A stretch of DNA of 60,898 nt from a bacterium (GCA_030648955.1 JAUSHB010000004.1:1-60898), one strand, 5' to 3'; shown: positions 11,633 through 20,680, numbered from the stretch's first letter. The notes: generated by a model from the letters alone, not told the origin. Made by a program: numbers and translations.

Positions 11633-11704
11633 GCGGCTGTAGTTCAACGGTAGAACACTCGCCTGTCACGCGAGAGGTCGTGGGGTCAGCACCCATCAGC
11701 CGCG
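11633..11704 (+). tRNA. tRNA-Asp (GTC)
   Basis: GCGGCTG/CAGCCGC acceptor, CTCGC-CTGTCAC-GCGAG anticodon arm, G73; atypical T-loop GTCAGCA. Confidence 0.88.
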
Positions 11705-11885
11705 CAAAACAAAACCCCGAAAGGGGTTTTAATTTGCGCGGCTGAAACAAGTGACCTGCGTCATTTGTGGTGGGTGATGACGGGCGGAGCGATGTTTTGC
11801 CAGCAGGCAAAACCGCGAGCCGGGGTAGCGAAATTTTCGAGCGGCGGCGAGGAAATATTTGTGACCAGCACCCATCAGCCGCGCA
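11687..11885 (+). mobile_element. tRNA-Asp-associated miniature element between 20-bp direct repeats
   Basis: cagcacccatcagccgcgca at 11687-11706 and 11866-11885; 159 bp non-coding structured interior. Confidence 0.8.
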
Positions 11886-11888
11886 TCT

Positions 11889-11920
11889 AAAAAATCCTCC
11901 GACCTAGGCGGAGGATTTTT
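11889..11920 (+). terminator. Intrinsic terminator
   Basis: aaaaaatcctccg-acctagg-cggaggattttt. Confidence 0.75.
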
Positions 11921-11977
11921 GTTTGAAAATATCCCGATAATACTATACTATGTGGGCTGGTCTCACAATAGACATGT

Positions 11978-12012
11978 GCCCTTGAACATTTTGCCCTACA
12001 AAATGTTCGGGC
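11978..12012. repeat. Hairpin upstream of tRNA-Thr pair
   Basis: gccc..gaacattttg-cccta-caaaatgttc-gggc. Confidence 0.6.
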
Positions 12013-12039
12013 GAACAATTTTTGAAGAAAGTTGTTTTA

Positions 12040-12115
12040 GCCGTTGTAGCTCAGTTGGTAGAGCACGTTCTTGGTAAGAACGAGGTCTCCGGTTCAATCC
12101 CGGACAACGGCTCCA
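12040..12115 (+). tRNA. tRNA-Thr (GGT)
   Basis: GCCGTTG/CAACGGC acceptor, CGTTC-TTGGTAA-GAACG, CCA encoded. Confidence 0.93.
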
Positions 12116-12119
12116 ACTC

Positions 12120-12192
12120 GCCACCTTAGCTCAGTTGGTAGAGCAGTGCTTTCGTAAAGCAAAGGTCCCCAGTTCAATTCTGGGAGGTGGCT
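12120..12192 (+). tRNA. tRNA-Thr (CGT)
   Basis: GCCACCT/AGGTGGC acceptor, TGCT-TTCGTAA-AGCA anticodon arm. Confidence 0.93.
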
Positions 12193-12195
12193 CAA

Positions 12196-12942
12196 TTATT
12201 TTTTCTTTTGCGTTGTCGTCGCCGTCGAGGTTGCGGTGTTTTGCGCCTTTTCGCGCGCAGCCTTGAGTTTCACAAGTATCGGCATAAGGTTCTCGATCTC
12301 TTCGCGGCTCTTGAATCCGTAATGAGTTTCGTCCCCTGCCTGCGCCGTGCCCGTCGTGGCAGGCAGGCCAATAATAATAGCAGGGAGCGTGTTTTTAAGC
12401 TTGAAAACCGCTTGCAGGGTTTTTATGATAGGAAAGTCAAGATTGTAATCAAACGAATACACTCGAAGTTCAGGGTATTCTTCGCGGAGATCGGTAAGCA
12501 CATACCCTTCTTTTTTGCAGTCAGCGCAGTCTCCTTTATTTGAATAGAAATAGAGTATAAAAATTAATTTTTGTTTGCATTTTTGATCCACCTGCTTCAT
12601 GAGCAAATAGTCCTTAACTTGAAGGACCGAATAATATTTCTTTAGGCGAATGACTTCCGGATTGGTCACTCCCAGATTTTCTTCGGCATAGGTTAGTTTT
12701 TCGGCGATGGAATTAAGCTCTTGTGACAAAACTGAATTATCAATCGCTTTGCACGAGAGTTCTTTTAAGAGGTTGAATTGTGTTTCTGACGAAAGAAGAT
12801 CAAGTGCTATTTTATCCTCGATCGACTGGATGTTTTGAATTCGTTTTTTATCGGAATAATTACTGATTGCAAACGCGGTGAAAAAGATCACTGACGTGAT
12901 AATAAACACAAAAATATATTTTCTGTAATCATCAAAATTCAT
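12196..12942 (-). CDS. Membrane-anchored protein with C-terminal thioredoxin-like CxxC domain
   Basis: N-terminal TM, ILYFYSNKGDCADCKKEGYVL; carries an 11-aa palindrome-derived insert. Confidence 0.7.
   Translation of the reverse strand: MNFDDYRKYIFVFIITSVIFFTAFAISNYSDKKRIQNIQSIEDKIALDLLSSETQFNLLKELSCKAIDNSVLSQELNSIAEKLTYAEENLGVTNPEVIRLKKYYSVLQVKDYLLMKQVDQKCKQKLIFILYFYSNKGDCADCKKEGYVLTDLREEYPELRVYSFDYNLDFPIIKTLQAVFKLKNTLPAIIIGLPATTGTAQAGDETHYGFKSREEIENLMPILVKLKAAREKAQNTATSTATTTQKKK
12335..12367. repeat. In-frame CCTGCC...GGCAGG palindromic insert (33 bp)
   Basis: cctgcctgc-gccgtgcccgtcgtg-gcaggcagg, encodes LPATTGTAQAG. Confidence 0.78.
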
Positions 12943-18893: not shown

Positions 18894-18902
18894 TAATCAT
18901 TT

Positions 18903-19544
18903 ATGCAACTGTATCTCATGCGTCACGGAGAAACTACATCGAACGGTACGGGTGTTCACGGCAAGTCGACTGACAGCCTTTCTGAGACCGGATGCAAGCA
19001 AGCAGAGCTTGTCGCACAGCGATTTCTAACTATTCCCGTCGAGCTTATTATTTCAAGCACACTCGAGCGGACTAAAGAAACAGCGGCAATCATCAATGCG
19101 CATTTGAAAAAACCGATCGAATTTTCAGACTTGATCGTTGAGCGAAAATATCCTGAAATAATTTTATCAAAAGCTAAAAATGATCCTGAAACAATTAAAC
19201 TTATTTTCGCCATGGAGAAATCGTATGATACACCGGACACTCGCTATGCCGACGCCGAGAGTTTTAATGACTTAAAGAGCCGCGCGAGAAGATTTCTTGA
19301 CGAAGTGTTAAAGAGAAAAGAGGAAAAAATTTTGGTTGTAACACACGGTATGTTTATGCGCTTTCTTATTACCTATATGATGTTTGGGGAATCCATCACT
19401 CCCCGTGAGTTTATCAAGTCGCGTGATTTTCTTCGGACAAAATTTACCGGCATCACAATTTGCAGATACGAAGCGAATCCAAAACCCTACGGCACTCCGG
19501 GCTGGAAACTCGAAACGTGGAATGACCACGCCCATTTGAGCTAA
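18903..19544 (+). CDS. Histidine phosphatase family protein
   Basis: RHGET, SSTLER, LVVTHG. Confidence 0.9.
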   Translation: MQLYLMRHGETTSNGTGVHGKSTDSLSETGCKQAELVAQRFLTIPVELIISSTLERTKETAAIINAHLKKPIEFSDLIVERKYPEIILSKAKNDPETIKLIFAMEKSYDTPDTRYADAESFNDLKSRARRFLDEVLKRKEEKILVVTHGMFMRFLITYMMFGESITPREFIKSRDFLRTKFTGITICRYEANPKPYGTPGWKLETWNDHAHLS

Positions 19545-19565
19545 AAACCTTTCCGATGTTATTGC

Positions 19566-19603
19566 AAAAAAATCCCCGCGCTCGTGAGAGGCGGGGGTGT
19601 TTT
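19566..19603. terminator. Probable bidirectional terminator
   Basis: ccccgc...gcggggg hairpin with A and T tracts between convergent genes. Confidence 0.65.
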
Positions 19604-19617
19604 CCTAAAAAAGGAAA

Positions 19618-20178
19618 TCAGAAATTTTCTGGGAGATGCTCGACAACAAAAGCAATCTTGTTAAGATAATCGCTCTTGAGGAGATCTTGTTGCGTGTAGT
19701 TGGCTACACGATCAGGACCTTTTTCGTAAGCGGCAATCACCTTGATTAGGGGAGTCAGTTTATAGTGATCTCGAAGACGAGCAAAATACTTCGTACCCTT
19801 CCATATGCTGGTGATGCAATCAAAACTATTGCCCATCACGCCAATCTCTACATCTGTTGAAGGAAGTGTTTGCATGCACCCCTTTGCACCAGCTGGTGAT
19901 TCGGCGTATGGGTTTCCCATACTTTCCACAATAAGCATTGCTATGACGATCTTCCGATGGACAAAATATTCTTGAGCCGCCTCCTTGATGTTTTCGCCAT
20001 ATTCGGCTATTACTTTTGGAATTGCTTCCAATACAGATTTTTCCCATTCGGGTGTGGTTTGCGGAAGTGCACCCGTCAGTTTTGGGCGTGGAATGGCTTC
20101 TGCCTCTGGATACCCAATGATGGTAACAAGAGCGACAATATTAAGACAAAGCAAAATAACCACAAAAAACTTCTTCAT
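19618..20178 (-). CDS. Soluble lytic transglycosylase (SLT) domain protein
   Basis: Signal/TM, VESMGNPYAESPAGAKGCMQ catalytic ES and GxMQ motifs. Confidence 0.85.
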   Translation of the reverse strand: MKKFFVVILLCLNIVALVTIIGYPEAEAIPRPKLTGALPQTTPEWEKSVLEAIPKVIAEYGENIKEAAQEYFVHRKIVIAMLIVESMGNPYAESPAGAKGCMQTLPSTDVEIGVMGNSFDCITSIWKGTKYFARLRDHYKLTPLIKVIAAYEKGPDRVANYTQQDLLKSDYLNKIAFVVEHLPENF

Positions 20179-20360
20179 CCCTGTTTCTCCTTGAAAATTT
20201 GAAAGAGCTCCTTACTTGTTATAATGTATTTAAAATGAAATGTCAAATTTTTTGCCGCGCTTCATCGTTTACTTCTTTGTGTTTTTGGTGTAATTTGTAG
20301 GTTGCGGGAGAAAGTTTCCATGGCTTCGTTAGTTTTATGAGTTCTGCGAGTTTTGAGTAG

Positions 20361-20385
20361 GATTTGGAAGTCCTGCTTCCAAATC
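20361..20385. repeat. REP-like hairpin
   Basis: gatttggaag-tcctg-cttccaaatc perfect 10-bp stem. Confidence 0.7.
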
Positions 20386-20459
20386 TATAAAAAGCCATTG
20401 AAGTTTTTTGAAGTTCGGAAAGCTTTCTTGAGTTGTTCGTTGTAAGTTATTTTATACAT

Positions 20460-20530
20460 TGCGGGTTCGTCTAATGGTAGGACACTTGCCTCTGGAGCAA
20501 GGTATTGGGGTTCGAGTCCCTGACCCGCAG
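20460..20530 (+). tRNA. tRNA-Gln (CTG)
   Basis: TGCGGGT/ACCCGCA acceptor, CTTGC-CTCTGGA-GCAAG, GTTCGAGT T-loop. Confidence 0.92.
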
Positions 20531-20680
20531 TTCGGAGCATTGCGGAGAACTGTGGGAGGAAGTGAACTGCTTCACTTCCAACAGGGGCTCGAAAGGGATT
20601 TCGTTATTTTCTTTGAGCTCTGCTCAAGGAAAATCGGAATCCACCCGCGGCGGTAGCCGAGAGTCCCTGACCCGCAGCCA
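20514..20680 (+). mobile_element. tRNA-Gln-associated miniature element between 17-bp direct repeats
   Basis: gagtccctgacccgcag at 20514-20530 and 20661-20677; only the distal copy is followed by CCA. Confidence 0.8.

Follow-up and report, generated by a model that had tools for sequence, protein, structure and literature searches.

Candidate gene-free insertion cassettes at tRNA 3' ends, identified behind tRNA-Asp and tRNA-Gln genes of a bacterial contig

Structured elements behind two tRNA genes

The sequence analysed here, referred to below as the window, is a 60,898-nt stretch of bacterial DNA (GCA_030648955.1 JAUSHB010000004.1:1-60898). ARAGORN and Rfam called six tRNA genes in it, and two of the six, a tRNA-Asp and a tRNA-Gln, are followed by the small structured elements with which this report deals and which we discuss as candidate insertion cassettes. 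We call X the segment of the tRNA 3' end that is present as a direct repeat, in a proximal and a distal copy, and X' its antisense copy. X' is split by a hairpin, H1, into X'a, antisense to the acceptor 3' strand, and X'b, antisense to the T-arm; the folded part between X'b and distal X is the body, and T1 and T2 are terminator-like hairpins. The initial annotation had given coordinates for both elements together with a plan that they share, and the tRNA calls, the repeats, the antisense segments and H1 confirmed both (Table 1).

The direct repeats are exact, with 20/20 identical positions behind tRNA-Asp (11687-11706 against 11866-11885) and 17/17 behind tRNA-Gln (20514-20530 against 20661-20677), and at tRNA-Gln a CCA follows the distal copy only. 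When both strands of the window were scanned for hairpins of at least 6 bp with a CTGC loop, two were found, and both were the H1 hairpins. RNA folds of both elements paired X' with distal X. Compared with 200 shuffles per element, the folds had z-scores of -7.5 (Asp) and -5.2 (Gln), and no shuffle was as stable (0/200).

The two bodies belong to different types. R1, a covariance model of the body that we call type I, scored window positions 11782-11866 at 94.1 bits (E = 9e-18) and positions 20540-20619 at 6 bits, and by this low score the Gln body is not of type I. A motif, gcggcgg, had been put forward as common to both bodies, but it sits in non-equivalent hairpins of the two body types, and its presence in both is probably a coincidence. 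Homology of the Asp and Gln bodies through this motif was dropped, the type I model being without a match to the Gln element.

In a comparison of the window with Rfam (15), only tRNA exceeded the gathering score; matches at E<=10 were noise or long-hairpin miRNA artefacts, and no ribozyme, group I or II intron, tmRNA or tRNA-like family of Rfam matched the elements. No integrase, transposase or reverse transcriptase was found within ~8 kb, where two further open reading frames (ORFs) were left unscanned, which agrees with the initial remark that no integrase lies nearby. The neighbours over this distance were LigA, GatA, a release factor (RF), FtsE/X, a histidine phosphatase, glycosyltransferases and peptidases, besides some ORFs that Pfam did not match, and no GIY-YIG ORF was present in the 60.9-kb window.

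Table 1. Positions of the two elements and their host tRNA genes in the window
Feature	Position	Strand	Basis
Host tRNA-Asp(GTC), intact	11633..11705	+	ARAGORN; Rfam tRNA 60.3 bits
Proximal X of tRNA-Asp, 3' end from T-loop C56 to 2 nt beyond the discriminator	11687..11706	+	sequence, repeat scan
T1, terminator-like hairpin AAAACCCC-GAAA-GGGGTTTT, tip of a long X..X'a palindrome	11711..11730	+	sequence, fold
X'a of Asp, exact reverse complement of 11696-11708 (acceptor 3' strand and trailer), 8/8	11733..11745	+	
H1 of Asp, 9-bp hairpin, CTGC loop	11747..11768	+	
X'b of Asp, antisense to T-loop and T-stem 3' strand, 10/12	11769..11781	+	
Type I body: P0-P1 hairpin (GGA/GA internal loop) and long P2 hairpin	11782..11866	+	R1, covariation, repeat depth
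Distal X of Asp, repeat of 11687-11706	11866..11885	+	sequence, repeat scan
T2, terminator-like hairpin closing the Asp unit	11890..11921	+	sequence
Sequence pieces of the Asp element: body end ..TTTGTGAC; X CAGCACCCATCAGCCGCGCA; T1 AAACAAAACCCC			
Host tRNA-Gln(CTG), intact	20460..20530	+	ARAGORN, Rfam (start 20459/60)
Proximal X of tRNA-Gln, G57 to G73, no CCA after it	20514..20530	+	sequence, repeat scan
Gln spacer, new DNA relative to empty alleles	20531..20549	+	allele comparison
X'a of Gln, CTGTGGG, antisense to acceptor 3' strand, one G-U pair	20550..20556	+	sequence, fold
H1 of Gln, 9-bp hairpin, CTGC loop	20558..20579	+	
X'b of Gln, CAGGGGCTCGAA, antisense to TTCGAGTCCCTG, 11/12	20582..20593	+	
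Type II body of Gln	20594..20660	+	folds; shape common to relatives
Parts of the Gln body: AT-rich long hairpin (20596-20642), linker ACCCG, short hairpin CGGC-GGTA-GCCG (20648-20659), then A			
Distal X of Gln (20661-20677) and CCA (20678-20680), then ancestral flank CCAGTTTGAAATAGGTTCGGATTCCGAG	20661..20680	+	

The T-loop of the tRNA-Asp is unusual. It reads GUCAGCA (window 11681-11692), with G54 and G58 where U54 and A58 are expected, and both X'b and distal X mirror the change, which hairpin-templated conversion may have brought into the tRNA from the inverted arm.

Two body types and tRNA-specific arms

Relatives of the elements were collected by pattern scans, and the loci found in this way carry L-numbers (L018, L050 and so on); metagenome evidence refers to assembled contigs of DNA runs. 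In four groundwater and soil metagenome runs from different studies, positions 11783-11866 of the window recurred on 32-106 contigs per run at 80-95% identity, and the borders of repeat depth were sharp at 11783 and at 11866, the latter being the start of distal X. Joints seen in contigs aligned to the region stem from other organisms or from the repeat, and no conclusion is based on them. A search with a 20-nt core pattern in one genome per prokaryotic species returned 38 loci, 33 of them genuine and five chance matches in other phyla without the core context. The records of the 33 genuine loci were labelled as Patescibacteria lineages (Kaiser-, Taylor-, Nomura-, Falkow- and Gribaldobacteria, Paceibacterota and Minisyncoccia are among the labels) or as unclassified. 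Results placed the type I core in some 30 genomes of Patescibacteria, behind 15 or more kinds of tRNA and, besides, behind tmRNA, always on the strand of the tRNA and 50-110 nt downstream of it. The tRNA identities were Tyr, four Ser, Val, Phe, Lys, Arg, Glu, Leu, Ile, Pro and Asp. No match to the core pattern was found in viral contigs, no RNA run was found to contain the core, and a literature search aimed at such elements retrieved no description of them, Rfam 15 being likewise without a match.

Locus L027 carries a full-form cassette behind tmRNA (tmRNA at 7678-8000, module at 7432-7516, - strand), with arms that match the tRNA-like 3' end of the tmRNA; because of this locus the target class is better described as tRNA-like ends than as tRNAs alone.

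The two-hairpin fold of the type I body is supported by covariation. The consensus of this body is GCCGGAGCG..CGCGAG..GGGGTCGCG..TGTGACC, to which the Asp body of the window conforms. In an alignment of 31 cores, 93% of the stem cells were paired, against 38-43% in control registers slid by 1-3 columns, and both sides were changed in 105 stem cells, the shuffles giving 32 ± 5. P1 contained the search pattern, and its invariance among pattern-found copies is a selection artefact; copies found by other routes (L043b, L063) had compensatory P1 changes. G-U cells outnumbered A-C cells in the stems (54 vs 16). The + strand of the body was the more stable one in 36/39 cases (p = 1e-7), and the arms were nearly strand-symmetric. 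The CTGC loop of H1 was present in about half of the copies and is not universal. The likeness of the two H1 stems had been considered as a family signature and was ruled out, all 16 matches of the H1 pattern AAGTGANCTGCNTCAYTT in viral contigs being due to chance.

These features of the body bring in the main rival to insertion, an RNA made by read-through. The cassette would then be a cis-acting or processed 3'-trailer RNA, vertically inherited and repeatedly lost, whose X' pairs with the tRNA tail or with distal X, and it could act in processing by RNase III, P or Z, as a mark for the decay of read-through transcripts, or as a stable small RNA with tRNA-like ends. The orientation with the tRNA in every case, the strand-specific fold with its conserved G-U pairs and tandem G-A motifs, and a core nearly invariant across classes all suit such an RNA; in addition, H1 branches off exactly at the place from which a tRNA sends out its D and anticodon arms, and X':X with H1 thereby mimics an acceptor/T minihelix. 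However, most orthologous tRNAs are without the cassette and identical tRNAs occur with empty sites, unrelated bodies and protein-coding cargo are found on the same arms and at the same site, a terminator-like hairpin usually lies upstream of the module, distal X decays, and the element is better conserved than host tRNAs and flanks when the window is compared with L050. We therefore regard the RNA account as unlikely.

Two further observations concern the surroundings of type I bodies. In L026 (1-2050) and L038 (4720-7410), the spacer between 16S and tRNA-Ile holds a type I body behind a structured stretch of ~170 nt; the 16S gene of L026 is interrupted by an insert of ~900 nt, which contains an ORF and matches group-II-intron D1-D4 of Rfam (52 bits). 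In L044, in L047 and in the second copy of L043, a further mini-hairpin, looped by (G)TAAT (GAAA-GGCG-TAAT-CGCC), stands between the GACC body end and X. It resembles the short nGTA-loop hairpin of type II, which suggests that bodies are built from modules.

The units occur in two forms, with an overall size of 130-190 bp. The full form has the order tRNA, spacer or T1, X'a, H1, X'b, body and distal X, with distal X starting at T-loop position 56-60. In the short form, one near-perfect hairpin of 20-23 bp is made from the trailer together with the final 5-9 nt of the tRNA; its 3' arm adjoins the body directly, behind which the repeat is limited to CACAA. Direct repeats measured 15-23 nt in full-form relatives and 6 to ~66 nt overall. 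A T1-like terminator hairpin usually lies between the proximal tRNA and the element. Tandem, nested and truncated units were seen in L030, L032/L049, L039, L045 and L131, and the tRNA-Ser of L043 is followed by an X-29 nt-X footprint.

A second body type was recognised from the tRNA-Gln cassettes. Six others (L074, L131, L140, L146, L170, L174) share one body shape, with variants in L039 and L125: a long AT-rich hairpin closed by nnnTT/AAnnn, a linker of 3-5 nt (GTAC in the relatives, ACC in the window), a short nGTA-loop hairpin, (G)AGA and then X. Type II is defined by this shape and the 3' signature, and the Gln body of the window, which fits them, is a putative member. The outer H1 pairs of the window Gln element, GGAAG/CTTCC, are common to the tRNA-Gln cassettes L063, L131 and L133. 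In L133 the arms of the window (H1 GGAAG..CTGC..CTTCC and the G-U variant CAGGGGCTCGAA of X'b) stand with a type I body, and since the same arms thus carry type II in the window and type I in L133, bodies have been exchanged between tRNA-specific arm lineages. At the tRNA-Gln of the window, in short, the common arms carry a body of a second kind.

The antisense arm tracks the host tRNA, as the initial annotation had noted. Predicted duplexes of X' had -23.1 kcal/mol with the own tRNA vs -15.5 kcal/mol with others, and the own tRNA ranked 1-3 of 25 for pairing in 17 cases. Compared with an exact antisense of the proximal, functional tRNA, X'b had 93% identity, distal X had a mean identity of 78%, and the match of X'b was maintained even where distal X was degenerate or missing. 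Two ideas about the origin and role of X' were discarded. Three mismatches in the X' arms of the window are compatible with G-U pairing, but a general G-U bias as a sign of RNA pairing was not found family-wide, where seven transitions in X' preserved pairing and five broke it. A decayed tandem duplicate of the tRNA is not a source of X'b, which is antisense to the T-loop: L024 reads ATTTGAA where a sense copy would read TTCAAAT.

The window was further compared with L050, which has an Asp cassette with the same rare core variant, GGGGTAGCG. The two tRNA-Asp genes are ~72% identical and the other tRNAs, spacers and flanks are unrelated, yet T1 and core together are ~97% identical, with T1 at ~90%. 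X, X' and distal X differ in concert between the two loci, and five of nine H1 pairs differ while the stems remain fully paired. Such a pattern would be expected if a lineage specific to tRNA-Asp had spread horizontally, and equally under strong constraint. The arms make up tRNA-specific lineages and do not have the look of fresh retargeting.

Hairpin-templated (quasi-palindrome) correction would yield stems such as these, perfect but changing fast, and it could keep X' matched to a selected tRNA without any function of X'. The initial annotation had read the elements as programmable and non-autonomous with a guide-like pairing. Of that reading, a miniature, non-autonomous, inserted element with a host-matched antisense segment stands, and a guide role of X' is a possibility: the data fit X' equally well or better as the strand that completes a folded copy of the attachment site, and they likewise fit an X' kept perfect by hairpin-templated correction.

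Occupied sites, cargo and a possible mode of movement

Metagenomes were scanned with the last 20 nt of tRNA-Gln, which gave 120 loci, ~100 of them long enough for use; about 16 distinct loci with this identical tRNA-Gln 3' end carry a cassette. At ten loci the conserved downstream flank CCAGTTTGAGATAGGTTCGGAYTCCGAG was present, and these divided into five empty and five filled alleles. The empty alleles (L065, L095, L126, L150, L152), in which tRNA-Gln is joined directly to the flank, are of the kind that the initial annotation had proposed to look for, and the tRNA of L150 is identical to the tRNA-Gln of the window (70/70). The filled alleles and the window hold four different cassettes (window; L063/L115/L156; L146; L171), and in all filled alleles the flank with its CCA stands behind distal X. 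Removal of 20531-20677 from the window restores the empty allele, from which it follows that T1 and the spacer are imported DNA. Other tRNAs gave the same picture. Three syntenic genomes had no element, the short form and the full form behind tRNA-Arg(GCG), and at tRNA-Ser(TGA), Ser(CGA), Lys(TTT) and Glu(TTC) alike, some genomes had a filled site and others an empty one. These results indicate that cassettes are gained and lost on short time-scales.

The flank of ~28 nt itself (CCAGTTTGAGATAGGTTCGGAYTCCGAG, window 20678-20712) follows tRNA-Gln(CTG) directly in many divergent Patescibacteria contigs (L065, L095, L126, L150, L152, L171, L146 and L170 carry it) and is far more conserved than nearby spacers. 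A structure of the trailer, or a site for binding, is a possible role for it.

Because empty alleles, alleles with different cassettes and alleles with cargo share one site, the elements are insertions and not introns or obligatory signals for tRNA processing. This bears on the second proposal of the initial annotation, an RNA switch or a T-loop intervening sequence in which the mature tRNA is assembled with distal X as its 3' end. A CCA behind the distal copy only, as at tRNA-Gln, L047 and L171, is what such an arrangement would produce, but that CCA belongs to the ancestral flank and L045 has the reverse pattern. The proximal tRNA is always intact and complete, a terminator-like hairpin usually intervenes, the distal copy is often degenerate or missing beside a perfect X', and most orthologous tRNAs are without an element. 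With no bulge-helix-bulge evident in the predicted folds and no match to a ribozyme or intron of Rfam, the proposal is hardly credible.

The alleles also weigh on a retroelement inserted by target-primed synthesis, for which the repeat would be a variable target-site duplication and X' would come from fold-back priming on the terminator of the target. A constant 3' junction (..TGACC|X) next to a variable left side, repeats of 6 to ~66 nt, an X' that reaches ~2 nt past the repeat and long, near-perfect palindromes are in line with this mechanism. It was weakened when the empty tRNA-Gln alleles identified T1 and spacer as new and not as target sequence; in the same way, making the repeat and X' from the tRNA's own terminator, by target-site duplication and fold-back, was rejected on the imported T1. 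As tRNA-specific arm lineages are common to different bodies and no reverse transcriptase is nearby, we consider retro-insertion very improbable; it and the intron reading are the disfavoured ones.

Some relatives carry genes. In L104 (oriented 1054-3236), perfect tRNA-Gln X repeats bound a 2.2-kb insert that encodes an N6/N4 DNA methylase and a PD-(D/E)XK nuclease, that is, a restriction-modification pair, and closes on the right with a type I body; in L077 a 3-kb island precedes T1, X', body and X. An internal degenerate X with flank in L104 suggests nested insertions there. Integrases that target tRNA and tmRNA genes reportedly leave, as their classic signature, a repeat that starts in the T-loop or the 3' end and stops just beyond the tRNA. 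The repeat of the cassettes matches this signature, and they could accordingly be scars of integrase-borne islands, attL-attR remnants with a deleted interior like those of cis-mobilisable elements (CIMEs), in which body and X' have no role. The X-bounded islands L104 and L077 and an orphan tRNA 3' fragment before the module in L051 favour such scars, but a covarying, strand-specific body of 85 nt behind >15 tRNA types in ~30 genomes would not be expected of them, nor would an X' that is 93% perfect, and no integrase was found in any locus. We hold this origin to be quite improbable.

Small stand-alone GIY-YIG genes (80-180 aa) adjoin tRNAs in L079 (14361-14615, -), L090, L085, L129, L155/L172 and L108/L141, and further ones lie against tRNAs in L170, L018 (1442-1723, -) and L047 (1636-1923). 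Pfam PF01541 was confirmed for the gene of L079. In the scanned loci 11/14 GIY-YIG frames were <=450 nt from a tRNA, vs 15% of the bases (p = 2e-7; some of the frames are duplicates). In L079/L090, perfect tRNA-Gln X repeats bound an insert of 346 nt that encodes an 81-aa GIY-YIG catalytic domain and ends with ACGCCTGACC|X like the type I bodies. L018 has a GIY-YIG gene between X and X' of tRNA-Trp, and in L170 such a gene separates a type II cassette from the native flank. These tRNA-adjoining proteins may be a mobilising or structure-specific nuclease. A motif, TCCCGAGC..(variable)..CGAGGGGC, flanks the GIY-YIG genes of L155/L172, L170 and L129, upstream or downstream, and stands immediately next to the native tRNA-Gln flank in L170.

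Homing-endonuclease drive is a live lead. A GIY-YIG enzyme would cut at or near tRNA gene ends or at the X-T1-X' cruciform, break repair would copy the filled allele, gene-free cassettes would be deletion derivatives or hitch-hikers, and the repeats would be by-products of template switching. The closeness of GIY-YIG frames to tRNAs and the placements in L079/L090, L018 and L170 point this way, and there is a precedent in phage T4, where clustered tRNA genes include the gene of SegB, a homing endonuclease of GIY-YIG type (PMC2988022, PMC13096335). Neither the window nor the surroundings of most cassettes hold a GIY-YIG gene, however, and the contexts of these genes are heterogeneous. Homing also requires homologous flanks, which leaves the same lineage between unrelated flanks and the spread to >15 tRNAs unexplained. 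Homing seems improbable.

What the analysis shows is site-specific, gene-free insertion at the end of tRNA and tmRNA genes from the T-loop on, insertions that come and go, different cassettes at one site in different genomes, arrays, relatives with cargo that have site and ends in common with the cassettes, and the lack of an encoded recombinase. The reading that we favour is that both elements of the window are gene-free, site-specific insertion cassettes of a Patescibacteria-wide family, moved in trans, that use the T-loop-to-3' end of tRNA and tmRNA genes, a reading on which the evidence stands about evenly balanced. Each cassette consists of arms, namely the replacement X, usually T1, and an inverted X' that H1 often splits at the point of the acceptor/T-stem junction, and of an exchangeable body of ~65-90 nt (type I or II) that folds only on the tRNA-sense strand. 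Insertion spares the tRNA and shifts its original 3' end with CCA and flank ~150-180 nt downstream.

How these cassettes move is more tentative. In a scheme drawn from the predicted structures, to which we give a real but minority chance, the mobile form would be a folded single strand whose X:X' stem replicates the duplex tRNA-end target, and an enzyme supplied in trans would exchange strands within X. The stem would be capped by T1, with H1 as an extrahelical branch, by a logic like that of the integron attC or the attP hairpins of integrative mobile elements exploiting Xer (IMEX). X' may be perfect because the stem is needed, or because quasi-palindrome correction copies it from the selected tRNA, and the body may be a handle for the enzyme or a small RNA expressed by read-through. 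Since X would become the new 3' end of the tRNA, strand exchange explains why the element carries a correct X. It would also account for the CCA and flank that stay with the distal copy, for arrays, for precise empty sites and for arm lineages specific to tRNAs.

Several points weigh against the insertion of cassettes by strand exchange. No recombinase acting on these sites was found in ~8 kb around the elements of the window or in 33 loci; in the latter no recurrent recombinase-like or IntI-like neighbour was seen, and the neighbours were housekeeping genes. The left border of the repeat varies between T-loop position 55-60 (full form) and ~71 (short form), which is loose for a single conservative recombinase, and the model explains neither this border nor the origin of arms for a new tRNA nor what the body is for. 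T1 looks like a working terminator, behind which a body acting as RNA would be poorly transcribed. The strand-specific fold with conserved G-U pairs suits RNA at least as well as single-stranded DNA, and an RNA of benefit to the host would also be in keeping with a commonest core that is nearly invariant from class to class.

The bolder claim is a new class of mobile element without a protein gene, in which a folded replica of the target, the T-arm and acceptor end (as single-stranded DNA or RNA), docks and exchanges strands at tRNA and tmRNA gene ends, with the arms as the address and the body as a handle for a structure-specific enzyme of the host or of GIY-YIG type. With protein-coding cargo accepted at the same site, this would form an integron-like platform for acquisition; we advance the claim as doubtful but possible. 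Patescibacteria (candidate phyla radiation, CPR) make up a large share of bacterial diversity and have tiny genomes with few recognised mobile elements. Here an abundant family, on dozens of contigs per metagenome and behind many tRNAs per genome, is absent from Rfam and from the papers searched, and its cassettes will confuse the annotation of tRNAs, terminators and non-coding RNAs in these genomes. One tRNA-end site takes up inserts that range from gene-free cassettes through a nuclease gene and a restriction-modification pair to a 3-kb island, and it may be a general site of gene acquisition. If the inverted replica is indeed a recombination site or a guide, it would embody a new and compact principle of insertion, re-addressable through ~20 bases; if the core is a host RNA, a conserved structure of 85 nt would still be a new phylum-wide RNA.

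Comparison with known systems

Bulge-helix-bulge tRNA introns of Thermoproteales are also short, related inserts at non-canonical positions, the T-loop included, with sequence complementary to an exon. The cassettes differ in leaving the gene uninterrupted, with an intact proximal 3' end, and their repeat of the 3' exon is without an archaeal counterpart; we know of no splicing endonuclease in the bacterial hosts. MITEs (miniature transposable elements with inverted repeats), repetitive extragenic palindromic elements forming hairpins (REPINs) and Rickettsia palindromic elements are, like the cassettes, small, multi-copy, non-coding, hairpin-rich and patchy, and are presumably mobilised in trans. 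The inverted arms of the cassettes copy the target and change with the host tRNA, in contrast to the element-specific terminal inverted repeats of MITEs. The direct repeat is long, variable (6-66 nt) and functional gene sequence, not the short duplication of fixed length of a MITE, and the cassettes insert strictly at tRNA and tmRNA ends in one orientation. With phage T4 SegB the relatives share GIY-YIG genes that adjoin tRNAs, one of them bounded by X with a type I-like end. Unlike SegB, the nuclease of the relatives is a bare catalytic domain of 80-100 aa, and the window elements and most cassettes are without an ORF.

Integron attC cassettes and IMEX (with the attP hairpin of CTX-phi) come closer in organisation. 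They too are mobile units without a recombinase of their own and build up arrays of diverse cassettes at one site. Their site is an imperfect palindrome that folds in one strand to imitate a duplex, with extrahelical features and a variable apical structure. The X-T1-X' of the cassettes, a hairpin of 20-40 bp with H1 as a branch, may be comparable, but its arms fold almost equally on both strands. The cassettes are without IntI, attI, the Pc platform, the GTTRRRY core (RYYYAAC / GTTRRRY) or a dif-like core; their site is a copy of the tRNA end, and what they carry as 'cargo' is in most cases a short non-coding body that folds. The likeness is one of logic only, and membership is not supported.

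Integrative elements of tRNA and tmRNA genes, together with CIMEs, are the group nearest to the cassettes. The cassettes differ from them in a size of only 130-190 bp with no integrase in or near any copy, in the inverted replica X' that forms a hairpin of 20-40 bp, in the conserved strand-specific body and in the service of >15 tRNA identities by one cassette family. As an integrase, attC core sites and the IntI platform were looked for at the loci and not found, we take the cassettes to be a variant of site-specific integrative elements and file them there, and we think it rather unlikely that they form a new class outright. Cassettes and integrative elements share the target, from the T-loop to the 3' end or at the extreme 3' end, a replacement 3' end that keeps the gene intact, a flanking direct repeat, empty and occupied alleles, tandem arrays and, in some members, cargo.

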